A stretch of 64,000 nucleotides of DNA from Escherichia coli (GTDB taxonomy: Bacteria > Pseudomonadota > Gammaproteobacteria > Enterobacterales > Enterobacteriaceae), in the NCBI RefSeq assembly GCF_030384885.1, contig NZ_CP128613.1; one strand, given 5' to 3'. The notes under the pieces were generated by a model, which saw nothing but the letters and a program-made list of their open reading frames with translations, was not told the origin of the DNA and did not search any database. Below are positions 20,454-57,371 of this stretch, piece after piece (positions within the stretch are counted from its first letter, which is position 1; every line of letters starts with the position of its first letter). Position numbers and translations under genes: made by a program.

Positions 20454-23130
20454 CGAACCCTTACGTCCCGACCCCGATCGTCTGCTGGAACAAACTGCCG
20501 CGCCGCATCGGGGGAAGCTGAAAGTATTTTTCGGTGCCTGTGCAGGCGTCGGGAAGACCTGGGCGATGCTGGCAGAAGCCCAGCGACTGCGGGCGCAAGG
20601 GCTGGATATTGTGGTTGGCGTGGTTGAAACTCACGGACGGAAAGATACCGCCGCAATGCTGGAAGGGCTGGCTGTTCTGCCGCTAAAACGCCAGGCGTAC
20701 CGTGGGCGGCACATCAGCGAGTTTGATCTCGATGCCGCCCTCGCCCGCCGTCCGGCGCTGATCTTAATGGACGAACTGGCGCACAGTAATGCGCCAGGCT
20801 CTCGTCATCCTAAACGCTGGCAGGACATTGAAGAGCTGCTGGAAGCGGGCATTGATGTTTTCACTACCGTCAACGTTCAGCATCTGGAAAGCCTGAACGA
20901 TGTGGTCAGCGGCGTCACCGGAATTCAGGTGCGGGAAACCGTGCCCGATCCCTTTTTTGATGCTGCCGACGACGTAGTGCTGGTGGACTTGCCCCCAGAC
21001 GATCTGCGTCAACGGCTGAAAGAAGGCAAAGTCTATATTGCCGGGCAGGCGGAGCGCGCCATTGAACATTTTTTCCGCAAAGGCAATCTGATCGCCCTGC
21101 GCGAACTGGCACTGCGCCGTACTGCCGATCGCGTAGATGAGCAAATGCGCGCCTGGCGGGGGCATCCTGGCGAAGAGAAAGTCTGGCACACGCGCGACGC
21201 GATTCTTTTATGTATTGGGCATAACACCGGCAGCGAAAAACTGGTCCGCGCGGCGGCACGGTTGGCATCGCGCCTTGGGAGCGTCTGGCACGCGGTGTAT
21301 GTTGAAACCCCTGCCCTGCATCGCTTACCGGAGAAAAAACGTCGGGCAATTCTCAGCGCCTTACGTCTGGCGCAGGAGCTGGGCGCGGAGACAGCAACAC
21401 TTTCTGATCCGGCGGAAGAAAAAGCCGTAGTGCATTATGCCCGTGAACATAATCTCGGCAAGATTATTCTCGGTCGCCCGGCCTCGCGCCGCTGGTGGCG
21501 TCGGGAAACGTTTGCTGACCGACTGGCGCGCATCGCCCCCGATCTCGATCAGGTGCTGGTCGCGCTTGATGAACCACCCGCCCGCCCGCTTAATAACGCG
21601 CCGGATAGCCGCTCTTTTAAAGACAAGTGGCGGGTACAGATTCAGGGGTGCGTGGTTGCCGCCGCGTTATGTGCCGTTATCACCTTAATTGCCATGCAGT
21701 GGCTGATGGCGTTTGATGCCGCCAACCTGGTGATGCTGTATCTGCTTGGCGTGGTGGTGGTGGCGCTATTTTATGGACGCTGGCCTTCGGTGCTTGCTAC
21801 CGTCATTAATGTGGTGAGTTTCGATCTCTTTTTTATCGCCCCACGCGGCACGCTCGCCGTCTCTGATGTGCAATATCTGCTGACCTTCGCGGTGATGTTA
21901 ACCGTCGGGCTGGTGATCGGGAACCTTACTGCTGGCGTGCGTTATCAGGCGCGGGTAGCCCGTTACCGCGAACAACGCACACGGCACTTATATGAAATGT
22001 CGAAAGCTCTGGCTGTGGGCCGCAGTCCGCAGGACATCGCCGCCACCAGCGAACAATTTATTGCTTCTACGTTTCATGCCCGCAGCCAGGTATTGTTACC
22101 CGATGACAACGGTAAATTGCAGCCGTTAACACATCCGCAAGGAATGACGCCGTGGGACGATGCCATCGCGCAGTGGAGTTTTGATAAAGGCCTGCCTGCG
22201 GGCGCGGGCACCGATACGTTACCCGGTGTGCCATACCAGATTTTGCCGTTAAAAAGCGGTGAGAAAACCTACGGGCTGGTGGTGGTGGAACCGGGGAATC
22301 TGCGCCAGTTGATGATCCCGGAACAGCAACGCCTGCTGGAGACGTTCACGCTGTTAGTTGCCAATGCCCTGGAACGCCTGGCGCTGACCGCCAGCGAAGA
22401 ACAGGCGCGGATGGCAAGCGAACGAGAACAGATCCGCAACGCCCTGCTGGCGGCGCTTTCGCATGATTTACGCACGCCGCTTACGGTGCTGTTCGGTCAG
22501 GCAGAAATCTTAACGCTCGATCTGGCAAGCGAAGGATCGCCTCACGCCCGCCAGGCCAGCGAGATTCGTCAGCATGTGCTGAACACGACCCGACTGGTGA
22601 ATAATCTACTGGATATGGCGCGAATTCAGTCCGGCGGCTTTAATTTGAAGAAAGAGTGGTTAACGCTGGAAGAAGTGGTCGGTAGCGCGCTACAAATGCT
22701 GGAACCGGGATTATCATCGCCCATCAACCTGTCTTTGCCAGAACCGCTGACCTTAATCCACGTTGATGGGCCACTCTTTGAACGGGTGCTGATTAATCTG
22801 CTGGAGAACGCGGTGAAATATGCGGGTGCGCAGGCCGAAATTGGTATCGATGCCCACGTTGAGGGCGAAAATCTACAACTGGATGTCTGGGATAACGGCC
22901 CCGGTCTTCCGCCAGGTCAGGAGCAGACGATATTCGATAAGTTTGCTCGTGGAAATAAAGAGTCGGCGGTGCCGGGCGTTGGGCTTGGGCTGGCAATTTG
23001 TCGGGCGATTGTGGATGTACACGACGGCACCATTACCGCCTTCAACCGACCGCAAGGTGGTGCCTGTTTTCGTGTTACACTTCCCCAGCAAACTGCCCCT
23101 GAACTTGAAGAATTTCATGAGGATATGTGA
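20446..23130 (+). CDS. kdpD: Sensor histidine kinase KdpD
   Basis: ORF 20413..23130; start at [16 protein letters not shown]; H-box [14 protein letters not shown], ATPase G-boxes; overlaps kdpC end. Confidence 0.95.
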
Positions 23131-23804
23131 CAAACGTTCTGATTGTTGAAGATGAACAGGCTATTCGTCGCTTTCTGCGCACGGCGCTGGAGGGCGATGG
23201 GATGCGCGTCTTTGAGGCCGAAACGCTGCAACGCGGCTTGCTGGAAGCGGCAACCCGTAAGCCCGATTTGATTATTCTCGATCTCGGCCTGCCAGACGGT
23301 GATGGGATTGAGTTTATCCGCGACCTGCGCCAGTGGAGCGCGGTGCCAGTAATTGTGCTTTCCGCCCGCAGCGAAGAGAGCGACAAAATCGCCGCGCTGG
23401 ATGCTGGAGCGGATGATTATCTGAGTAAGCCATTTGGTATTGGCGAATTACAGGCCCGTCTGCGCGTTGCTTTACGTCGCCACTCCGCCACCGCCGCTCC
23501 CGATCCGCTGGTGAAATTTTCTGATGTTACCGTCGATTTAGCCGCCCGCGTAATCCACCGCGGCGAGGAAGAGGTGCATCTCACCCCGATTGAATTCCGC
23601 CTGCTGGCGGTGCTGCTCAACAATGCCGGAAAAGTGCTCACCCAGCGCCAGCTTCTCAACCAGGTGTGGGGACCAAACGCGGTCGAACACAGCCACTATT
23701 TGCGTATATATATGGGGCATCTGCGACAAAAACTGGAGCAAGATCCCGCCCGCCCTCGCCATTTTATTACTGAAACCGGTATTGGGTATCGGTTTATGCC
23801 ATGA
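23127..23804 (+). CDS. kdpE: Response regulator KdpE (OmpR family)
   Basis: 225-aa ORF, GTG start overlapping kdpD stop (GTGA); receiver domain (LIVEDEQAIRRFL...DLGLPDGDG) and winged-helix output domain. Confidence 0.95.
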   Translation: MTNVLIVEDEQAIRRFLRTALEGDGMRVFEAETLQRGLLEAATRKPDLIILDLGLPDGDGIEFIRDLRQWSAVPVIVLSARSEESDKIAALDAGADDYLSKPFGIGELQARLRVALRRHSATAAPDPLVKFSDVTVDLAARVIHRGEEEVHLTPIEFRLLAVLLNNAGKVLTQRQLLNQVWGPNAVEHSHYLRIYMGHLRQKLEQDPARPRHFITETGIGYRFMP

Positions 23805-23849
23805 ATTATTATTCAATAAATACGCTTAACTAATTATTAATTTATTATT

Positions 23850-23883
23850 AAACCTGCCCCGAAAATTATTATTTGGCAGGTTT
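23850..23883. terminator. Putative hairpin downstream of kdpE
   Basis: aaacctgcc-N15-ggcaggttt in AT-rich context; long loop, so weak. Confidence 0.35.
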
Positions 23884-24078
23884 AATTTCTTAATGAAAAT
23901 ATAACCTACGAAATTGCAACATTTAAACAACAAAACAGCATCTAATATGGCGCTATTCATAATTAACGATTTATTATTTGGGGTGTGATCGTTTTTTGTT
24001 GATCTTCTTCACAGTTTATAGCCTTTTCATGGATAGAATAACTCTACCTTCAACTGACACAGCAAAAGGTAAAGGTAA

Positions 24079-24183
24079 ATGGAAAATAATAACCGCTTAA
24101 TGCCTCATATAAGGCGGACAACCCATATCATGAAGTTTGCCCATCGTAATAGTTTTGACTTTCATTTCTTTAATGCCCGTTAG
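24079..24183 (+). CDS. speFL: speF leader peptide (ornithine-sensing ribosome arrest peptide)
   Basis: 34-codon ORF translated by hand: MENNNRLMPHIRRTTHIMKFAHRNSFDFHFFNAR*, about 310 bp upstream of speF; matches the described SpeFL leader; not in ORF track. Confidence 0.8.
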   Translation: MENNNRLMPHIRRTTHIMKFAHRNSFDFHFFNAR

Positions 24184-24493
24184 TCTTCTGACTAAAGGGC
24201 ACCCCAGCGTACAGGTCTCCCTGACTTTAAGCATTACAGGTTAATACCTGTATCCCTCGGTGCTCATATACTGCTAACCCTTTTAAACTCTAAATAATTC
24301 AAGTCGCAGCACTAGCAACTTGAAGTATGACGAGTATAGCCAGTTACCGGGCTGGTCTGGGTTATTGCATCTGCAAAAAGCAAACTACTGATTTATTTAT
24401 CAGCGGTGGAGTTTTGCTTTTTTTCCGGCGTGATCGATTTCTCCTTTGAGAAATTGAGGACCTGCTATTACCTGAAATAAAGAGATGAACAAA

Positions 24494-26692
24494 ATGTCAG
24501 AATTAAAAATTGCCGTTAGTCGTTCTTGCCCGGATTGTTTTTCCACTCATCGTGCATGCGTGAATATTGACGAAAGTAATTATATTGACGTTGCCGCCAT
24601 TATTTTATCAGTCAATGATGTTGAACGTGGAAAACTCGATGAAATAGACGCTACTGGCTATGGCATTCCTGTTTTTATTGCAACGGAAAATGAAGAACGT
24701 GTACCAGCAGAATATCTGCCACGTATTACTGGTGTCTTCGAGCATTGCGAATCACGGAAAGAATTTTATGGACGTCAGTTAGAAACCGCTGCCAGCCATT
24801 ATGAAACGCAGCTGCGCCCGCCCTTCTTCCGCGCACTGGTCGATTATGTCAATCAGGGCAATAGCGCTTTTGACTGCCCGGGTCATCAGGGGGGTGAGTT
24901 TTTCCGTCGCCATCCGGCAGGCAATCAGTTCGTGGAATATTTTGGCGAAATGCTCTTCCGCTCCGACTTGTGTAATGCCGACGTAGCAATGGGCGATCTA
25001 CTGATTCATGAAGGTGCGCCATGCATTGCACAGCAACATGCGGCTAAAGTGTTTAATGCCGATAAAACGTACTTTATTTTAAACGGCACCTCCTCTTCCA
25101 ACAAAGTGGTTTTAAACGCCCTGCTAACACCGGGTGATCTGGTGCTGTTTGACCGCAATAACCATAAGTCTAACCACCACGGGGCCTTGCTACAGGCTGG
25201 TGCAACACCGGTTTATCTGGAAACAGCACGTAACCCGTATGGTTTTATCGGTGGGATTGATGCGCACTGCTTCGAAGAAAGTTATCTGCGTGAACTGATT
25301 AGAGAAGTTGCACCGCAACGGGCAAAAGAGGCGCGTCCGTTCCGCCTCGCTGTGATTCAGTTAGGCACCTACGACGGTACTATTTATAACGCCCGCCAGG
25401 TGGTGGATAAAATCGGTCATCTGTGTGACTACATCCTGTTTGACTCAGCATGGGTCGGCTATGAACAGTTTATTCCGATGATGGCGGACTGTTCGCCGCT
25501 GCTACTGGAGCTTAATGAGAACGATCCGGGTATTCTGGTTACGCAATCTGTACATAAGCAGCAGGCTGGTTTTTCTCAGACTTCACAAATTCATAAAAAA
25601 GACAGCCATATCAAAGGGCAACAGCGTTATGTACCGCACAAACGCATGAACAACGCCTTTATGATGCACGCCTCCACCAGCCCGTTCTATCCGCTGTTTG
25701 CCGCACTGGATATCAACGCCAAAATGCATGAAGGTGTCAGCGGTCGTAATATGTGGATGGATTGTGTGGTTAACGGTATTAATGCCCGCAAATTGATCCT
25801 CGATAACTGTCAGCACATTCGTCCGTTCGTTCCTGAACTGGTGGATGGTAAACCCTGGCAATCGTATGAAACAGCGCAAATTGCGGTTGATCTGCGCTTC
25901 TTTAAATTTGTACCCGGTGAGCACTGGCATTCTTTTGAAGGTTACGCAGAGAACCAATACTTTGTCGATCCGTGCAAACTGTTGCTGACAACTCCTGGCA
26001 TTGATGCACGTAACGGCGAATATGAAGCATTCGGTGTACCCGCGACGATTCTTGCTAACTTCCTGCGCGAAAATGGCGTAGTGCCGGAAAAATGCGATCT
26101 TAACTCCATCCTCTTCCTGCTGACTCCGGCAGAAGATATGGCCAAACTGCAGCAACTTGTTGCCCTGCTGGTACGCTTCGAAAAACTACTGGAAGCTGAT
26201 GCGCCTCTGGCGGAAGTATTGCCTTCCATCTACAAACAGCATGAAGAGCGCTACGCCGGTTATACCCTGCGTCAGTTGTGCCAGGAAATGCATGATTTGT
26301 ATGCCCGTCACAACGTGAAACAACTGCAAAAAGAGATGTTCCGTAAGGAGCACTTCCCACGCGTCAGCATGAATCCACAAGAAGCCAACTACGCCTATTT
26401 ACGCGGTGAAGTGGAGCTGGTTCGTCTGCCGGATGCAGAAGGCCGTATCGCAGCCGAAGGTGCGCTTCCTTATCCTCCGGGTGTGCTGTGTGTTGTTCCG
26501 GGTGAAATCTGGGGTGGTGCTGTTCTGCGTTACTTCAGCGCTCTGGAAGAAGGGATCAACCTGCTACCAGGTTTTGCACCGGAGCTGCAGGGTGTCTATA
26601 TCGAAGAACATGATGGTCGTAAGCAAGTTTGGTGCTATGTCATCAAGCCTCGTGATGCGCAAAGCACCCTGTTGAAAGGGGAAAAATTATGA
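24494..26692 (+). CDS. speF: Inducible ornithine decarboxylase
   Basis: ORF 24485..26692; start placed at MSELKIAVSRS (732 aa) with SD agaga ~9 nt upstream; PLP-dependent Orn/Lys/Arg decarboxylase family; stop overlaps potE start. Confidence 0.9.
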   Translation: MSELKIAVSRSCPDCFSTHRACVNIDESNYIDVAAIILSVNDVERGKLDEIDATGYGIPVFIATENEERVPAEYLPRITGVFEHCESRKEFYGRQLETAASHYETQLRPPFFRALVDYVNQGNSAFDCPGHQGGEFFRRHPAGNQFVEYFGEMLFRSDLCNADVAMGDLLIHEGAPCIAQQHAAKVFNADKTYFILNGTSSSNKVVLNALLTPGDLVLFDRNNHKSNHHGALLQAGATPVYLETARNPYGFIGGIDAHCFEESYLRELIREVAPQRAKEARPFRLAVIQLGTYDGTIYNARQVVDKIGHLCDYILFDSAWVGYEQFIPMMADCSPLLLELNENDPGILVTQSVHKQQAGFSQTSQIHKKDSHIKGQQRYVPHKRMNNAFMMHASTSPFYPLFAALDINAKMHEGVSGRNMWMDCVVNGINARKLILDNCQHIRPFVPELVDGKPWQSYETAQIAVDLRFFKFVPGEHWHSFEGYAENQYFVDPCKLLLTTPGIDARNGEYEAFGVPATILANFLRENGVVPEKCDLNSILFLLTPAEDMAKLQQLVALLVRFEKLLEADAPLAEVLPSIYKQHEERYAGYTLRQLCQEMHDLYARHNVKQLQKEMFRKEHFPRVSMNPQEANYAYLRGEVELVRLPDAEGRIAAEGALPYPPGVLCVVPGEIWGGAVLRYFSALEEGINLLPGFAPELQGVYIEEHDGRKQVWCYVIKPRDAQSTLLKGEKL

Positions 26693-28008
26693 GTCAGGCT
26701 AAATCGAACAAAATGGGCGTCGTTCAGTTAACCATACTGACGATGGTCAACATGATGGGCTCCGGCATCATCATGCTGCCGACAAAGCTTGCCGAAGTTG
26801 GGACGATCTCAATAATCTCCTGGTTGGTGACAGCCGTAGGCTCAATGGCGCTGGCATGGGCATTCGCAAAATGCGGTATGTTCAGCCGTAAATCAGGCGG
26901 TATGGGCGGTTATGCCGAGTATGCTTTCGGTAAATCCGGTAACTTTATGGCGAACTATACCTACGGCGTCTCGCTGCTGATTGCTAACGTGGCGATTGCT
27001 ATTTCGGCAGTTGGTTACGGCACCGAACTGCTCGGCGCGAGTTTGTCACCAGTGCAGATTGGTCTGGCAACCATCGGAGTGCTGTGGATTTGTACCGTGG
27101 CTAACTTTGGTGGTGCGCGCATTACCGGGCAAATCAGTAGCATTACCGTGTGGGGGGTCATTATTCCGGTGGTAGGCCTGTGCGTTATCGGCTGGTTCTG
27201 GTTTAGCCCGACACTTTACGTTGATTCCTGGAATCCGCATCATGCACCGTTCTTCAGTGCGGTAGGTTCTTCCATCGCCATGACGCTGTGGGCTTTTCTT
27301 GGTCTGGAGTCTGCGTGTGCGAATACTGATGTAGTGGAAAACCCGGAACGTAATGTGCCAATCGCGGTACTCGGCGGTACGTTAGGTGCGGCGGTGATTT
27401 ATATCGTCTCCACCAACGTGATTGCCGGGATTGTGCCCAATATGGAGCTGGCAAATTCAACGGCACCATTTGGTCTGGCCTTCGCGCAAATGTTCACACC
27501 GGAAGTGGGTAAAGTCATTATGGCGCTGATGGTGATGTCCTGCTGCGGTTCACTGCTTGGCTGGCAGTTCACCATTGCCCAGGTGTTTAAATCTTCATCT
27601 GATGAAGGCTACTTCCCTAAAATTTTCTCCCGTGTAACCAAAGTGGATGCACCGGTTCAGGGGATGTTGACCATTGTGATTATTCAGAGTGGATTGGCAC
27701 TGATGACCATTAGCCCGTCACTGAACAGCCAGTTCAACGTGCTGGTTAACCTGGCCGTGGTGACCAATATCATTCCGTATATCCTGTCGATGGCGGCATT
27801 AGTCATTATTCAGAAGGTCGCCAATGTGCCACCATCAAAAGCGAAAGTAGCAAACTTTGTTGCCTTTGTTGGTGCGATGTACAGTTTCTATGCGCTGTAC
27901 TCATCCGGGGAAGAAGCCATGCTGTACGGTTCCATCGTGACTTTCCTTGGTTGGACACTGTATGGTCTGGTATCACCACGCTTTGAACTGAAAAACAAAC
28001 ACGGTTAA
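26689..28008 (+). CDS. potE: Putrescine:ornithine antiporter
   Basis: 439-aa APC-family membrane ORF overlapping speF stop (ATGA). Confidence 0.9.
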   Translation: MSQAKSNKMGVVQLTILTMVNMMGSGIIMLPTKLAEVGTISIISWLVTAVGSMALAWAFAKCGMFSRKSGGMGGYAEYAFGKSGNFMANYTYGVSLLIANVAIAISAVGYGTELLGASLSPVQIGLATIGVLWICTVANFGGARITGQISSITVWGVIIPVVGLCVIGWFWFSPTLYVDSWNPHHAPFFSAVGSSIAMTLWAFLGLESACANTDVVENPERNVPIAVLGGTLGAAVIYIVSTNVIAGIVPNMELANSTAPFGLAFAQMFTPEVGKVIMALMVMSCCGSLLGWQFTIAQVFKSSSDEGYFPKIFSRVTKVDAPVQGMLTIVIIQSGLALMTISPSLNSQFNVLVNLAVVTNIIPYILSMAALVIIQKVANVPPSKAKVANFVAFVGAMYSFYALYSSGEEAMLYGSIVTFLGWTLYGLVSPRFELKNKHG

Positions 28009-28023
28009 AAAAGCGAAATAAAA

Positions 28024-28052
28024 AAGGGCGATTGAATGATCGCCCTTTCTGT
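28024..28052 (+). terminator. Rho-independent terminator of speF-potE
   Basis: gggcgattgaatgatcgccc hairpin followed by T-run, directly after potE stop. Confidence 0.7.
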
Positions 28053-28090
28053 TTGTTGACAAAGAGTTCGTTATTTATGCCGCATCCGGC

Positions 28091-28232
28091 AGGTGTAGGG
28101 TCCAAACGCGGTCGAACACAGCAACTATTTGCGTAATTATATGAGGCATTTGCGACAAAAACTGGAACAGGATCTCGTCCGCCCCGCCATTTCATTACTG
28201 AAACCGGTATTGGGTATCGGTTTATGCTTTGA
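28091..28232 (+). pseudogene. Degenerate duplicate of the kdpE 3' end (kdpE-homolog remnant)
   Basis: ~142 bp roughly 90% identical by eye to 23663..23804 (the last ~47 codons of kdpE), same orientation, frame broken; likely equivalent to the K-12 kdpE-like pseudogene remnant (name uncertain). Confidence 0.75.
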
Positions 28233-28355
28233 AAAAAGTGGCAATGTATGGATAAAGTCATTTTTTATTCAAATATAAGGAACTTAATATTTAAAAAATG
28301 TCCCATACAATGCCTCATCATAAATGACACCGTAGCACACAAGGAGCAAGTAGCG

Positions 28356-29006
28356 ATGCGTGAAGTGAGTCAGTTAGTAAATACGGAAGATTCAGCCTGG
28401 CCAATAATCCAGAATTGGTTAAAAGAAGCCACAAACCATGCCGAACTCTTACCGGTTAATAAAGATTTAGCCGAAACCGCACTTTATCAATTACAGGTTA
28501 CAACAAAATCACCGATGGGTGCGCTTGTCTATGGCTCCGGAGGTCTGCTGATTGATAACGGTTGGTTACGCATAGCAGGCTCTGGTCACCCCCGGTTACC
28601 ACGAGATCCAGCAAGTTGGACACAACGCCCTGAATTCGCAAGCGTGCGGGCTTTACCCATCGCCGATGATGTCGCAGGGGGAATTTTTGCTCTTAATGGT
28701 GGCGATCTTGGGGAAGATACTGGCTGCGTTTATTATTTTGCGCCAGATACGCTGAATTGGGAAAGTCTGGAGGTTGGATATTCTGAGTTTCTTCAGTGGG
28801 CATTATCCGGTGATTTAGATACCTTCTATGAAAATGTACGCTGGCCGCAATGGCAAGAAGACGTAATAAAATTATCGGCAACGGAAGCCTTCACTTTCTA
28901 CCCTTTCTTATGGGTACAAAGTGAAGAAGCAAGAACAAGAAAAGTTATTTCGCTTACTGAACTCTGGGAAATGCAGTATCAAATGAAAGAAACAATCACG
29001 CAATAA
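28356..29006 (+). CDS. ybfG: DUF2625-family protein
   Basis: ORF 28248..29006; start at ATG 28356 preceded by strong SD aaggag (spacing ~9); appears intact here. Confidence 0.7.
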   Translation: MREVSQLVNTEDSAWPIIQNWLKEATNHAELLPVNKDLAETALYQLQVTTKSPMGALVYGSGGLLIDNGWLRIAGSGHPRLPRDPASWTQRPEFASVRALPIADDVAGGIFALNGGDLGEDTGCVYYFAPDTLNWESLEVGYSEFLQWALSGDLDTFYENVRWPQWQEDVIKLSATEAFTFYPFLWVQSEEARTRKVISLTELWEMQYQMKETITQ

Positions 29007-29046: not shown

Positions 29047-29541
29047 TTAATGTGTGTTTATCGCTTTCAATTCTTGCTGGCAATTTTCTGACTGACAGCG
29101 TCGCAACTCAATAATCCCGACATGCATCATCGAGCCAAAAAATCCGCTTTCGCTGACATAATCCTCATTAACTATCGGTCGAGTGCCGGGCTTACCCTGG
29201 CAAATCCTCATAAAAAATGAGGTGTAGCATTGCCATTCAGGATTTAAACCGGTCTTTTCTTGTGCTGACATATCATGAAGATAAGTAAGTTCTTTTTCGT
29301 TCCCGCCTGACAACTGCCAGCGGCGGGTATTATCAGGTAAGTTATCGCCACGGCAATTTGTCTTACACCGGGAAGGCGCAATATTTACCGCAATGCTACC
29401 CGTTAATCCTCTGGTTTTATCTTTAGGGGTCAGTAACCAGTCACCAGCTAATGATGATTGTTCAGGTTGGGCGCATGCTGTCAGTAGTAGTGTGGCGGTA
29501 ATTAATGCCACTCTGACGACCAGACTCCTTTTGGTCTTCAT
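29047..29541 (-). CDS. ybfP: Lipoprotein
   Basis: ORF 29047..29592; start at MKTKRSLVV... with lipobox LLTAC (164 aa). Confidence 0.75.
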   Translation of the reverse strand: MKTKRSLVVRVALITATLLLTACAQPEQSSLAGDWLLTPKDKTRGLTGSIAVNIAPSRCKTNCRGDNLPDNTRRWQLSGGNEKELTYLHDMSAQEKTGLNPEWQCYTSFFMRICQGKPGTRPIVNEDYVSESGFFGSMMHVGIIELRRCQSENCQQELKAINTH

Positions 29542-29582
29542 TTTGAATTCCCTTGAGCTATTCAGTTTGTTGGCAAAGTGCT

Positions 29583-29690
29583 CGTTGTTCATGCCGGATG
29601 CGGCGTGAACGCCTTATCCGGCCTACAAAATAGGGCAAATTCAATATATTGCACCATCTTCCCAAGCCTGATAAGCGTAGCGCATCAGGC
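29583..29690. repeat. REP/BIME element pair with RIP-like linker
   Basis: gccggatgcggcgtgaacgccttatccggcctacaaaa...caaattcaatatat...gcctgataagcgtagcgcatcaggc; same architecture as 37010..37100. Confidence 0.75.
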
Positions 29691-29700
29691 AGTCATAAGT

Positions 29701-29735
29701 AAAAAAGGGCGATCTTCTGACCGCCCTTTTTCTTA
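29701..29735. terminator. Bidirectional hairpin terminator downstream of pgm
   Basis: aaaaaagggcg...cgcccttttt: GC stem with A-run and T-run on either side. Confidence 0.65.
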
Positions 29736-29745
29736 TTAAATGTGT

Positions 29746-31386
29746 TTACGCGTTTTTCAGAACTTCGCTAACAATCTCAACCGCTTCTTTCTCGATCTGC
29801 TTGCGATGTTCTTCACCGAGGAAGCTTTCGCAGTAGATTTTGTATGCGTCTTCCGTGCCTGACGGACGCGCGGCGAACCAGCCGTTGTCAGTCATCACTT
29901 TCAGACCGCCAATAGAAGCACCGTTGCCCGGTGCCGCCGTCAGGCGCGCGGTGATCGGGTCACCTGCCAGGGTGCTGGCGCTCACCATTTCCGGAGACAG
30001 CTTAGACAGCGCCGCTTTTTGTGCGGAAGTCGCAGCTGCCTGCAAACGGTTATAGCTCGGCGCACCAAAGCGTTTTGCCAGTTCGTTGTAGTGTTCCTGC
30101 GGGTTCTTACCGGTGACCGCGGTGATTTCTGCCGCCAGCAGACACATAATGATACCGTCTTTATCGGTGGACCACGGCGTGCCGTCGAAACGCAGGAAGG
30201 AAGCCCCTGCGCTCTCTTCGCCGCCAAAGCCGAAGCTGCCGTCGAACAGACCATCAACAAACCATTTGAAGCCTACCGGGACTTCTACCAGCTTACGGCC
30301 CAAATCATTGACCACACGGTCGATCATCGCAGATGAAACCAGCGTTTTACCGACAGCAACATCTTTGCCCCACTGCGGACGATGCTGGAACAGGTAGTTG
30401 ATCGCCACCGCCAGGTAGTGGTTCGGATTCATCAAACCTGCCGGAGTGACGATACCGTGACGGTCATAATCCGGGTCGTTAGCAAACGCCAGATCGAACT
30501 TATCACGCAGTGCCAGCAGACCCGCCATCGCACACTCGGAGGAGCAGTCCATACGGATCGCGCCGTCTTTATCGAGGTGCATAAAGCGGAAGGTTTGATC
30601 GACCTGATCGTTAACGATGGTCAGGTTGAGGTTGTAATACTCGCCAATGCGCTTCCAGTATTCAATACCGGAACCGCCCAGCGGATCAACGCCCAGCGTC
30701 AGGCCCGCTTTCTGAATCGCCGCCATATCAACGATATCGGCCAGACCTTCCACAAACGGCTGCACCAGATCCTGCTCTTTCACATGACCGGATGCCATCG
30801 CTTCGTCGAGGGAGATACGCTTCACACCTTTCAGGCCATCGGCCATCAGTGCGTTGGCCCTGTCTTCCACCACTTTGGTGACGTTGGTATCAGCCGGGCC
30901 ACCATTTGGCGGATTGTACTTGATACCACCATCTTCTGGCGGGTTATGGGACGGTGTAATCACGATACCGTCTGCCAGCGGGCCACCTTTTTTATTGTGA
31001 ACCAGGATGGCATTGGAAACGGCAGGCGTCGGAGTGAAGCCATTGTTTTCCTGCACAATAACATCTACGCCGTTCGCTGCCAGCACTTCCAGTACGGAAA
31101 TGAACGCAGGCTCGGACAGGGCGTGAGTATCTTTACCCACATAGCAAGGGCCAGTGATGCCGTTTTTCGCACGTTCTTCAGCAATTGCCTGAGCGATCGC
31201 CAGAATATGCGGCTCGTTAAAGCTGCGGCGCGCTGCACTGCCACGGTGACCGGAAGTACCGAATTTCACCGCGTGCTCCGCATTCCCTGCTTCTGGTTTC
31301 AGTACATAATATTGCGCCGTCAGTTGGGCGACGTTAATCAAATCACTCTGTTGTGCAGGTTGGCCTGCACGATTGTGGATTGCCAT
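29746..31386 (-). CDS. pgm: Phosphoglucomutase
   Basis: ORF 29746..31437; start at [12 protein letters not shown] (546 aa); phosphoserine loop TPSHNP present. Confidence 0.95.
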
Positions 31387-37009: not shown

Positions 37010-37180
37010 TCATGCCGGATGCGGCGTGAACGCCTTATCCGGCCTACAAAAGCACGCAAATTCAATATATGGCAGAGATCATGTAGGCCTGATAAGCGTA
37101 GCGCATCAGGCAATTTAGCGTTTGAAACTGTTTCTATGTTTCTTGCCGGATGTGGCGTAAATGCCTCACCCGGCCTGGTA
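37010..37180. repeat. REP/BIME cluster (three REP units) between chiP and glnS
   Basis: gccggatgcggcgtgaacgccttatccggcctac ... gcctgataagcgtagcgcatcaggc ... gccggatgtggcgtaaatgcctcacccggcc. Confidence 0.75.
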
Positions 37181-48106: not shown

Positions 48107-48183
48107 GGCTACGTAGCTCAGTTGGTTAGAGCACATCACTCATAATGATGGGGTCACAGGTTCGAATCCCGTCGTAGCCACCA
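48107..48183 (+). tRNA. metT: tRNA-Met (elongator, anticodon CAT)
   Basis: ggctacgtagctcagttggttagagcacatcactCATaatgatggggtcacaggttcgaatcccgtcgtagccacca; cloverleaf with CCA end. Confidence 0.95.
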
Positions 48184-48191
48184 TCTTTTTT

Positions 48192-48276
48192 GCGGGAGTG
48201 GCGAAATTGGTAGACGCACCAGATTTAGGTTCTGGCGCCGCAAGGTGTGCGAGTTCAAGTCTCGCCTCCCGCACCA
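48192..48276 (+). tRNA. leuW: tRNA-Leu (long variable arm; anticodon read as TAG, assigned by eye)
   Basis: gcgggagtggcgaaattggtagacgcaccagatttaggttctggcgccgcaaggtgtgcgagttcaagtctcgcctcccgcacca (85 nt). Confidence 0.9.
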
Positions 48277-48299
48277 TTCACCAGAAAGCGTTGTACGGA

Positions 48300-48374
48300 T
48301 GGGGTATCGCCAAGCGGTAAGGCACCGGTTTTTGATACCGGCATTCCCTGGTTCGAATCCAGGTACCCCAGCCA
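48300..48374 (+). tRNA. glnU: tRNA-Gln (anticodon TTG)
   Basis: tggggtatcgccaagcggtaaggcaccggtttTTGataccggcattccctggttcgaatccaggtaccccagcca. Confidence 0.9.
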
Positions 48375-48407
48375 TCTTCTTCGAGTAAGCGGTTCACCGC
48401 CCGGTTA

Positions 48408-48482
48408 TTGGGGTATCGCCAAGCGGTAAGGCACCGGTTTTTGATACCGGCATTCCCTGGTTCGAATCCAGGTACCCCAGCC
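48408..48482 (+). tRNA. glnW: tRNA-Gln (anticodon TTG), second copy
   Basis: Identical 75-nt sequence to 48300..48374. Confidence 0.9.
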
Positions 48483-48497
48483 ATCGAAGAAACAATC

Positions 48498-48574
48498 TGG
48501 CTACGTAGCTCAGTTGGTTAGAGCACATCACTCATAATGATGGGGTCACAGGTTCGAATCCCGTCGTAGCCACC
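48498..48574 (+). tRNA. metU: tRNA-Met (elongator, anticodon CAT), second copy
   Basis: Identical to 48107..48183. Confidence 0.95.
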
Positions 48575-48623
48575 AAATTCTGAATGTGTCGAATGCGTTC
48601 GGCAAATTCACAAACCAATTTGT

Positions 48624-48698
48624 TGGGGTATCGCCAAGCGGTAAGGCACCGGATTCTGATTCCGGCATTCCGAGGTTCGAATCCTCGTACCCCAGCCA
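48624..48698 (+). tRNA. glnV: tRNA-Gln (anticodon CTG)
   Basis: tggggtatcgccaagcggtaaggcaccggattCTGattccggcattccgaggttcgaatcctcgtaccccagcca. Confidence 0.9.
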
Positions 48699-48735
48699 AT
48701 TTATTCAAGACGCTTACCTTGTAAGTGCACCCAGT

Positions 48736-48810
48736 TGGGGTATCGCCAAGCGGTAAGGCACCGGATTCTGATTCCGGCATTCCGAGGTTCGAATCCTCGT
48801 ACCCCAGCCA
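48736..48810 (+). tRNA. glnX: tRNA-Gln (anticodon CTG), second copy
   Basis: Identical 75-nt sequence to 48624..48698. Confidence 0.9.
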
Positions 48811-56293: not shown

Positions 56294-57202
56294 ATGCAAT
56301 TACGTAAACCTGCCACAGCAATCCTGGCCCTGGCGCTTTCCGCAGGACTGGCACAGGCAGATGACGCCGCCCCGGCAGCAGGCAGTACGCTGGACAAAAT
56401 CGCCAAAAACGGTGTGATTGTCGTCGGTCACCGTGAATCTTCAGTACCTTTCTCTTATTACGACAATCAGCAAAAAGTGGTGGGTTACTCGCAGGATTAC
56501 TCCAACGCCATTGTTGAAGCAGTGAAAAAGAAACTCAACAAACCGGACTTGCAGGTGAAACTGATTCCGATCACCTCACAAAACCGTATTCCGCTGCTGC
56601 AAAACGGCACTTTCGATTTTGAATGTGGTTCAACCACCAACAACGTCGAACGCCAAAAACAGGCGGCTTTCTCTGACACTATTTTCGTGGTCGGTACGCG
56701 CCTGCTGACCAAAAAGGGCGGCGATATCAAAGATTTTGCCGACCTGAAAGGCAAAGCCGTAGTCGTTACTTCCGGCACTACCTCTGAAGTTTTGCTCAAC
56801 AAATTGAATGAAGAGCAAAAAATGAATATGCGCATCATCAGCGCCAAAGATCACGGTGACTCTTTCCGCACCCTGGAAAGCGGTCGTGCCGTTGCCTTTA
56901 TGATGGATGACGCCCTGCTGGCCGGTGAGCGAGCGAAAGCGAAGAAACCAGACAACTGGGAAATCGTCGGCAAGCCGCAGTCTCAGGAAGCCTACGGTTG
57001 CATGTTGCGTAAAGACGATCCGCAGTTCAAAAAGCTGATGGATGACACTATCGCTCAGGTGCAGACCTCCGGTGAAGCGGAAAAATGGTTTGATAAGTGG
57101 TTCAAAAATCCAATTCCGCCGAAAAACCTGAACATGAATTTCGAACTGTCGGACGAAATGAAAGCACTGTTCAAAGAACCGAATGACAAGGCACTGAACT
57201 AA
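56294..57202 (+). CDS. gltI: Glutamate/aspartate ABC transporter periplasmic binding protein
   Basis: ORF 56219..57202; start at MQLRKPATAILALALSAGLAQA (signal peptide), 302 aa. Confidence 0.9.
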   Translation: MQLRKPATAILALALSAGLAQADDAAPAAGSTLDKIAKNGVIVVGHRESSVPFSYYDNQQKVVGYSQDYSNAIVEAVKKKLNKPDLQVKLIPITSQNRIPLLQNGTFDFECGSTTNNVERQKQAAFSDTIFVVGTRLLTKKGGDIKDFADLKGKAVVVTSGTTSEVLLNKLNEEQKMNMRIISAKDHGDSFRTLESGRAVAFMMDDALLAGERAKAKKPDNWEIVGKPQSQEAYGCMLRKDDPQFKKLMDDTIAQVQTSGEAEKWFDKWFKNPIPPKNLNMNFELSDEMKALFKEPNDKALN

Positions 57203-57209
57203 TTACAAG

Positions 57210-57359
57210 AACCAGGGGCGGAAATTCTAGCCCTCTCGATTGTTACGTAGCACGGACAGACTATACGCCTGATGGTCGTTCCCCATCGGGCCTGAAAACC
57301 GCAATACGCTGGGTAACAATCTTCGAGGGTAGCAGTTAACGCTGCTACCCTCTTTTTTC
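57210..57359 (+). ncRNA. sroC: Candidate SroC-type sRNA from the gltI-gltJ intergenic region, ending at an intrinsic terminator
   Basis: 169-bp intergenic spacer inside the operon containing hairpin gagggtagcagttaacgctgctaccctc (57325..57352) plus T-run; SroC is described at this position. 5' end not determinable from sequence. Confidence 0.5.
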
Positions 57360-57371
57360 TGGAGTAGATTT

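Follow-up and report, generated by a model that had tools for sequence, protein, structure and literature searches.

The 64,000-nt stretch of the Escherichia coli chromosome analyzed here (hereafter, the window) carries two gene modules between kdpE and pgm, with a fragment of kdpE lying between them. All the features described are on the plus strand except the ybfP-like gene and pgm, which are on the minus strand. At the left stands the intact response regulator gene kdpE (23127..23804; 225 aa, ending in ...GYRFMP*; PGAP annotation, ORF list, and tblastn), whose final 144 nt, together with 1 additional nt, constitute the functional copy of a direct repeat (R1, 23661..23805; repeat search, blastn, and alignments). 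The sequence then shows a hairpin (AAACCTGCC...GGCAGGTTT, 23850..23883), located in AT-rich DNA at the left end of the speF module and, by its sequence, likely the kdpE terminator; the GC content of the whole kdpE–speFL spacer is 31–40%. The module itself comprises speFL (24079..24183; a leader or arrest peptide ORF of 34 aa; annotation and ORF), speF (24494..26692; inducible ornithine decarboxylase), and potE (26689..28008; putrescine-ornithine antiporter), the last two identified by annotation and tblastn. It is followed by the potE terminator (AAAAAAGGGCGATTGAATGATCGCCCTTTC, R3, 28020..28049; terminator scan and sequence comparison), with a GAATGA-type loop, by a duplicate of the ybfP-upstream sequence that appears as filler in the join (R2, 28050..28078; blastn and sequence), by a stub representing one arm of a REP palindrome (GCCGCATCCGGCAG, 28079..28092; comparison with the full REP at 29593-29626), and by the kdpE 3' remnant (R1', 28090..28233; repeat search, blastn, and annotation), which ends in ...RFML* with a TGA stop. 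The second module, located between potE and pgm, contains a DUF2625 gene (28356..29006; annotation, with Pfam PF10946 on homologs), which is the ortholog of K-12 ybfG and is intact here, and a ybfP-like lipoprotein gene (29047..29541; annotation). The second copy of the filler (R2', 29564..29592; blastn and sequence) abuts the ybfP start on its upstream side and runs into a REP–IHF-like spacer–REP element (29593..29690; sequence), which we take to be of the RIP/BIME type, and then come the pgm-proximal terminator (AAAAAAGGGCGATCTTCTGACCGCCCTTTTTC, R3', 29701..29732; sequence comparison) and pgm (29746..31386; annotation and tblastn), the conserved right flank of the site. The complete order is kdpE[R1]–speFL–speF–potE–terminator R3–R2–REP stub–R1'–ybfG–ybfP–R2'–BIME–R3'–pgm. 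An Rfam search of the region 23.6–29.8 kb gave no matches.

The copy of the kdpE 3' end after potE is real, and the coordinates given for it in the initial annotation were correct within 1–2 nt (repeat search and blastn). R1 and R1' are 89.66% identical over 145 nt (blastn, E = 1.4e-49), in agreement with the value of about 90% that had been judged by eye, and the repeat search resolves them into two adjoining blocks, 23661-23755 vs 28090-28184 (88%) and 23754-23805 vs 28182-28233 (92%), whose shift in offset from 4429 to 4428 corresponds to one 1-nt deletion in R1'. The AT-rich region, speFL, speF, and potE all lie between the two copies, as had been claimed. The remnant begins 82 nt past the potE stop, beyond the potE terminator, and matches the last 47 codons of kdpE, i.e., the C-terminal part of the KdpE DNA-binding domain only. 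In the alignment it is disabled by TGG→TAG at the third codon and by a frameshift from the 1-nt deletion; frame-breaking indels had been proposed. In an identical record (E. coli 2013C-4282, NZ_CP027579.1), PGAP describes it as a winged-helix pseudogene, "frameshifted; incomplete; missing N-terminus." Two more repeat pairs, R2/R2' and the terminators R3/R3', had been overlooked, and given their presence the structure reads as two alleles in tandem.

R2 is 82–86% identical to the sequence just upstream of ybfP. In the window it is found as one exact copy plus the diverged R2', and elsewhere in the genomes it gives weak matches of 80–84% with borderline E-values. The final bases of the REP stub overlap the start of R1', which marks the join point, where the microhomologies are of 1–3 nt and the filler appears templated from ~1.5 kb away. 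The REP sequence GCCGGATGCGGCGTGAACGCCTTATCCGGCCTAC at 29593, which presumably fits the REP palindrome consensus, has a second identical copy at 37014-37047 of the window, and queries containing the REP element match 15–39 places per genome. The two terminators are different alleles: the R3' type occurs in alleles B, C, D, and E (see below), while the GAATGA-type loop of R3, seen beside potE in no E. coli other than the A-type, is very similar to the E. albertii potE/pgm terminator. None of the 3163 B-type E. coli junctions reaches 95% identity to a synthetic junction with the GAATGA terminator, the best one being at 93.4%.

R1' is the ortholog of ybfI (b4636), an already known and annotated pseudogene of K-12 MG1655, as the initial annotation had suspected. 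Both copies lie between potE and ybfG, oriented alike and with both breakpoints and disabling changes such as TGG→TAG in common, and the R2/REP stub upstream and the sequence downstream have the same layout. They are 92.4% identical over 145 nt, the window copy having an extra 1-nt deletion and 10 substitutions. The neighboring ybfG differs in that it is intact in the window strain and a pseudogene in K-12. Since the two remnants have common breakpoints and four common derived changes (that at TGG→TAG included), they point to a single origin, and their differences at 10/144 positions indicate that the joining event is old. A reconstructed ancestral remnant differs from kdpE alleles of E. coli at 8–11 positions, from those of other Escherichia at 12–14, and from those of Citrobacter at 22–27. 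At the level of sequence comparison, a single origin and an E. coli-like kdpE as the source are demonstrated. A literature search on ybfI, ybfG, and ybfP found no account of the origin of this E. coli pseudogene or of this geometry.

In E. coli the kdpE–pgm spacer is an insertion site that exists in multiple allelic forms, and at least five structural alleles can be told apart. They were counted in 5426 complete genomes by megablast of junction queries with coverage of at least 80%, about 84 genomes being left unclassified. Allele A, with both modules as in the window and in K-12, is recognized by the remnant junction and is present in 1822 genomes; this junction is found in A-type genomes only, and ybfG follows the remnant in every example inspected. 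The most common arrangement is allele B (kdpE–speFL–speF–potE–terminator–pgm), with 3164 genomes (58%). Allele D is empty (kdpE–BIME–terminator–pgm; about 107 genomes) and allele E is the same plus ybfP (247 genomes), and these two together show a stepwise build-up of the ybfG–ybfP side in chromosomes without speF–potE. Finally, in allele C kdpE is directly followed by ybfG and ybfP, an arrangement carried by two of the 5426 genomes (CUWW10 and GF4-3). In both, an intact kdpE continues into exactly the sequence found downstream of the remnant (TTTGAA|AAAAGTGG...ybfG). The kdpD–kdpE region of CUWW10 is 100% identical to that of a K-12-like A-type. Two further candidates for unusual alleles were discarded, FDAARGOS_497 being an ordinary mosaic A-type and 2017-01-4CC an IS1 deletion.

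Across species we surveyed 80 listed loci, among which Salmonella, E. fergusonii, E. marmotae, and E. ruysiae are not represented, so that the outgroup picture within Escherichia is thin. The check for an empty site in relatives that had been proposed gave a positive result: kdpE and pgm converge directly (kdpE → ← pgm) in Pantoea, Serratia, Dickeya, Yersinia, several Citrobacter, and E. whittamii, as they do in the about 107 D-type E. coli genomes. This adjacency is the ancestral state, relative to which speFL–speF–potE is an insertion. The module without any kdpE remnant was detected by tblastn in E. albertii, Citrobacter sedlakii and others, Enterobacter, Kluyvera, Lelliottia, Leclercia, Atlantibacter, and more, and in E. 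albertii and more than 30 other listed species of Enterobacteriaceae it occupies the kdpE–pgm interval and its left border is the same. In the 80 species loci listed, blastn at word size 7 places the kdpE end only once per locus except in A-type loci, and no kdpE remnant after potE was found outside A-type E. coli. The speF allele classes within E. coli are unusually deep (91.6–98% identity vs 97–98% for pgm), and K-12-like speF is 86.9% identical to that of E. albertii, no closer than the other E. coli alleles are. No foreign donor of the DUF2625 gene was found: the sequences from E. coli have 86% identity or more, and those next in line (Kosakonia, Erwinia, Pantoea) only 53–57%. Two intermediate matches (P0005 and P0006) come from contigs of ~1 kb with uninformative flanks.

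The initial annotation had interpreted the direct repeats as the footprint left when speFL–speF–potE entered the kdp locus as a unit, duplicating or splitting its target in kdpE. The geometry invites such a reading, the repeats flanking exactly a module with GC below that of its surroundings and missing from the ancestral kdpE/pgm adjacency. The insertion of the module relative to that adjacency is supported; the kdpE duplication as a scar of its arrival is not, because the same module, with a conserved left border and no duplication of kdpE, is carried by more than 30 other species of several genera and by the 58% of E. coli that are B-type. In addition, the remnant is specific to E. coli and E. 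coli-like, and thus far younger than the presence of the module in Enterobacteriaceae, and a 145-bp duplication devoid of inverted repeats, transposase, or integrase is a misfit for transposition or site-specific integration. The B-type loci largely refute this interpretation, and we consider it very improbable. The remnant might otherwise be the last piece of a second response regulator gene or kdp operon, paralogous or foreign, which decayed in place and has nothing to do with the junction, and the generic PGAP label (a winged helix-turn-helix pseudogene only) would be compatible with this. However, homology to kdpE starts abruptly at the REP stub with nothing kdpE-like upstream, the ancestral remnant falls within the kdpE diversity of E. 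coli once its own derived changes are set aside, and both its 3' end and what follows downstream run colinear with the arrangement of CUWW10 and GF4-3, where an intact kdpE precedes ybfG, which makes this origin scarcely credible.

The anatomy of the locus and the distribution of its alleles are direct observations, and R1' is the decaying pseudogene ybfI, which probably marks the seam of two alternative modules placed in tandem instead of being a scar left by the first entry of speF–potE. In the A-type, a B-type segment that extends to and includes its own terminator (R3) would come first and a C-type segment starting 144 nt before the kdpE stop second, both joined via ~45 nt of filler (R2 plus the REP stub) that would have been copied from the ybfP-upstream/REP region. 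The stretch that starts within kdpE and ends at the pgm terminator then occurs twice, each time with different cargo, hence the interleaved direct-repeat pairs R1/R1', R2/R2', and R3/R3'. We infer one illegitimate join within E. coli, microhomology- or REP-associated, for which template switching, homology-facilitated illegitimate recombination, or a duplication-type join are candidate mechanisms. Afterward the truncated kdpE copy would have decayed neutrally, and the alleles would have moved among lineages by ordinary homologous recombination. Recombination between R1 and R1' could also delete speF–potE, giving a C-type (kdpE...TATCGGTTTATGCTTTGAA-AAAAGTGG...ybfG); the C-type genomes match the product expected and switch within the last identical block, and they could also be relic C alleles. 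Against the tandem join it can be argued that the C-type is nearly absent and both its representatives could be secondary deletions from A, that the filler and microhomology reading depends on a handful of bases, and that neither of the predicted intermediates was found, be it a tandemly duplicated C-type or an E. coli B-type whose terminator has the GAATGA loop. As to which module was resident, ybfG–ybfP being added to a speF–potE chromosome and the reverse seem to us about equally probable. The latter direction, one of the two that the tandem join allows, takes a more specific form in which a divergent Escherichia lineage supplied a speF–potE segment, together with the terminator belonging to it, to a C-type chromosome within E. 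coli; homology in kdpE would have served as anchor, and an illegitimate right join 144 nt upstream of the stop would have duplicated the kdpE end. The E. albertii-like loop of R3, missing from all B-type E. coli junctions, and the depth of the speF allele classes are in favor, as is the near-extinction of the C-type, expected if the gain of speF–potE was advantageous. Yet the R2 filler still needs explaining, every potential B-type donor within E. coli has the other allele of the terminator, the donor lineage itself was not found, and K-12-like speF shows no special closeness to E. albertii, so that we regard this capture as possible without favoring it. In its fullest version, which we offer tentatively and regard as rather doubtful, the spacer would be an old multi-allelic hotspot in which a ybfG–ybfP chromosome captured a non-coli Escherichia speF–potE cassette through an illegitimate recombination that was anchored by homology and brought in templated filler, the terminator being a fossil of the donor and the 145-bp repeats rendering the module deletable. 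Finally, a C-type chromosome might first have undergone a duplication running from within kdpE as far as the REP (a REP|kdpE join), with speF–potE later replacing the first ybfG–ybfP. REPs are documented duplication join points, and the R2–REP stub|R1' junction is exactly what would be expected at the join of such an [R1...REP] unit; nevertheless, a second illegitimate event would be needed at R3|R2, where B-type donors have no homology, and no intermediate with duplicated ybfG–ybfP appeared among the rows inspected, so we judge this order of events unlikely.

The closest known processes are duplication-type joins and illegitimate recombination at REP/BIME elements, homology-facilitated illegitimate recombination, and microhomology-mediated template switching. 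The tandem join proposed here resembles them in its novel junction beside a REP arm, its short templated filler, its microhomologies, and the direct repeats that flank the added segment, and the arrangement R1...R3–R2–stub|R1'...R2'–BIME–R3' is that of a tandem or duplication-type rearrangement, its junction being restricted to A-type genomes. It differs in that the partner of the REP is coding sequence instead of a second REP, and in that the two repeat units have different cargo (speF–potE vs ybfG–ybfP), which suggests that the event joined two alleles rather than duplicating one. There is also a likeness to transposon target-site duplications and to islands flanked by att repeats, since direct repeats bracket a lower-GC module at the 3' end of a gene, but the speF–potE module also exists elsewhere without the repeats. 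Repeats of 145 bp at 89.7% identity are unlike the short exact target-site duplications (about 2–14 bp) of transposons or IS, speFL, speF, and potE are the only genes inside, the annotation shows no transposase or integrase gene there, and the repeat search found no inverted repeats at the module ends. An integrase island was likewise rejected, with no integrase annotated from kdpA to fur and repeats that are long and diverged, not short and att-type.

This is an ordinary rearrangement around a known pseudogene, and it does not call for any novel type of system or mechanism. Nevertheless, it offers a concrete origin for ybfI of K-12 and corrects a tempting misreading of the repeat as the scar of speF–potE acquisition, and it makes the kdpE–pgm locus a clean natural case in which an illegitimate join beside a REP would have put two alternative islands in tandem. 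The extra ybfG–ybfP module is carried by about a third of the complete E. coli genomes, and about 6.5% of them are without the inducible ornithine decarboxylase/antiporter at this site, a variation that may be of use in pan-genome typing of E. coli and for the acid and polyamine physiology that depends on speF–potE. Should the capture from a foreign lineage be true, the acid-inducible ornithine decarboxylase/antiporter module would now be recombinationally deletable via the 145-bp repeats.

Behind potE the window carries a second, direct copy of the end of kdpE (CDS 23127-23804), as the initial annotation had proposed. The repeat consists of two abutting blocks, 23661-23755 versus 28090-28184 (88% identity) and 23754-23805 versus 28182-28233 (92%), and the one-base shift in offset between them implies that the second copy (R1', R1 being the kdpE end itself) has lost 1 nt. 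By blastn the two copies are 89.66% identical over 145 nt (E=1.4e-49), against the ~90% judged by eye. Between them lie speFL, speF and potE, with a kdpE-speFL spacer of 31-40% GC. The 43-aa ORF at 23969-24100, over the speFL upstream region, was called "TonB-dependent receptor" by PGAP here and "hypothetical protein" in other genomes, and is almost certainly a spurious call within the speF leader region. R1' starts 82 nt past the potE stop, is disabled by a TGG->TAG change at its third codon plus a frameshift, and was annotated by PGAP as a winged-helix pseudogene, frameshifted and incomplete at the N terminus. Its presumed identity with the kdpE-like pseudogene of K-12 was correct: at the equivalent site MG1655 has the pseudogene ybfI (b4636), located between potE and the pseudogene ybfG (b0691), with ybfP (b0689) farther on, and R1' shares 92.4% identity and identical boundaries with it. 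R1' is, in short, the already known ybfI, and a literature search found nothing on this pseudogene or its repeat geometry.

Downstream of the remnant an intact DUF2625 gene (28356-29006), ortholog of ybfG, converges with a ybfP-like lipoprotein gene on the minus strand (29047-29541); these are followed by a REP-IHF-like-REP element (29593-29690), a terminator and, again on the minus strand, the end of pgm (gene at 29746-31386). The K-12 ybfG has an internal stop. All close relatives of the DUF2625 gene that were seen (at least 86% identity) came from E. coli, followed at ~53-57% by those of Kosakonia, Erwinia and Pantoea. There are two further repeat pairs. R2 (28050-78), just past the potE terminator, and the single REP arm that leads from it to the remnant (the stub, 28079-92) form ~45 nt duplicating, at 82-86% identity, the sequence directly upstream of ybfP (R2', 29564-92), which continues into a full REP; the terminators of potE (R3, 28020-49) and pgm (R3', 29701-32) are one hairpin with differing loops. 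The full order, kdpE(R1)-speFL-speF-potE-R3-R2-stub-R1'-ybfG-ybfP-R2'-BIME-R3'-pgm (BIME, REP-spacer-REP), resolves into two tandem units of kdpE end, cargo and terminator, with different cargo. We reinterpret the locus as two alternative kdpE-pgm occupants fused in tandem. A query with R2 and the stub (28050-28092) matched three places in K-12-like genomes, which may have a third R2-like copy, and gave weak matches elsewhere (80-84%) in genomes lacking this double arrangement. Unrelated to this locus, the window also contains seven clustered tRNA genes (48107-48807) and the sRNA sroC (57198-57360, 170.8 bits).

Species-representative genomes were scanned with KdpE, giving at least 80 loci with 10-kb flanks, against which the window proteins were compared by tblastn. 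Among the loci listed, the backbone kdpD-kdpE -> <- pgm-seqA is conserved throughout Enterobacterales. The empty site does exist, with kdpE directly adjoining pgm (allele D) in Pantoea, Serratia, Dickeya, Pectobacterium, Yersinia, Buttiauxella, Mangrovibacter, several Citrobacter, E. whittamii and one more Escherichia representative, while speF-potE occupies it (allele B) in E. albertii, other Citrobacter, Enterobacter, Kluyvera, Lelliottia, Leclercia, Trabulsiella, Atlantibacter and others. In none of these listed loci did tblastn place DUF2625 or ybfP between kdpE and pgm, and blastn at word size 7 gave no further match to the kdpE end. Comparison of filled and empty Citrobacter sites places the module between the kdpE stop and the common terminator, with no duplicated sequence, and its left border (TGAATnnTTATTCATT) is common to Citrobacter and Escherichia. 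The kdpE repeat had been taken as the footprint of the module's entry as a unit; the speFL-speF-potE module is indeed a real, old insertion, but species loci with speF-potE show no kdpE repeat, which was not left by its acquisition.

Within E. coli, 5426 complete genomes were surveyed, a genome being counted when one place covered 80% or more of a query specific to the junction. Both modules (allele A, potE-R3-R2-R1'-ybfG upstream) were found in 1822 genomes, speF-potE only (allele B, potE-56 bp-pgm) in 3164, and intact kdpE followed directly by ybfG-ybfP, without speF-potE (allele C), in two, CUWW10 and GF4-3. This distribution ties the remnant to the presence of the two modules together rather than to speF-potE itself. 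The site lacks speF-potE, and also ybfG, in about 354 of the 5426 (e.g., O145 RM9873-C1, DG341-1, F9792); in 247 of these ybfP is the sole occupant, flanked by REP copies (allele E, kdpE-BIME-ybfP-R2-BIME-pgm), leaving about 107 empty sites (D). About 84 remained unclassified, such as 2017-01-4CC, where a deletion associated with IS1 has taken out the 3' part of kdpD, all of kdpE, speF-potE and the remnant, and stops immediately before the DUF2625 gene. A potE fragment (~90-91% identity to the 3' part of the window gene) also occurs on the 77.9-kb plasmid NZ_CP182310.1 of strain EC100, at about 25573-25927.

The window and K-12 remnants have common breakpoints and four derived substitutions, the stop included, which indicates a single origin, and they differ at 10 of 144 positions. 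Counted from the inferred ancestral remnant, E. coli kdpE alleles lie 8-11 differences away, those of other Escherichia 12-14 and those of Citrobacter 22-27, pointing to an E. coli-like kdpE as the source; much of the ~10% R1-R1' divergence is neutral decay. Diversity is unusually high across the whole locus (speF 91.6-98%, kdpE 93-97%, pgm 97-98% identity within E. coli). The interval 23400-28700 is 100% identical to strain 2013C-4282 (NZ_CP027579.1) and 93-97% in most other E. coli. The speF allele classes are unusually deep, the window gene (24494-26692) having 96% amino-acid identity to that of K-12 and the spread within the species exceeding half of the E. coli-E. albertii distance. The existence of mosaic A-types, and of one B-type with K-12-like left-hand alleles, implies shuffling by homologous recombination.

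The simplest account would be one illegitimate join, in which a C-type segment beginning 144 nt before the kdpE stop was placed after a B-type segment whose last element is its terminator, with ~45 nt of filler copied from the nearby ybfP-upstream/REP region. The junctions carry 1-3 nt microhomologies, and the pattern is like the template switching or homology-facilitated illegitimate recombination known at REP elements. Transposition or integrase-mediated insertion was rejected, since the repeats are long (145 bp) and diverged, and inverted repeats and mobility genes are absent. As to direction, the loop of R3 is of the GAATGA type, resembling that in the terminator of E. albertii, and among 3163 B-type junctions in E. 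coli there was none with as much as 95% identity to a query built with it; this one clue favours speF-potE as a possible incomer. Secondary E. coli B-types would yield an identical loop pattern, and conversion from A to B or B to A is easy through ordinary recombination between potE and pgm. In the two C-type genomes, CUWW10 and GF4-3, kdpE carries none of the private changes of the remnant and switches to the downstream sequence of the remnant exactly after ...ATGCTTTGAA, and kdpD-kdpE of CUWW10 matches that of a K-12-like A-type at 100% identity. This fits deletion by exchange between R1 and R1' in their last identical block, and the two genomes might also be relics of the C allele.

The fused locus represents neither a novel class of element nor a novel mechanism. 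The kdpE-pgm site has at least five structural alleles, and read in this way it makes a neat item in the natural history of the E. coli pan-genome.
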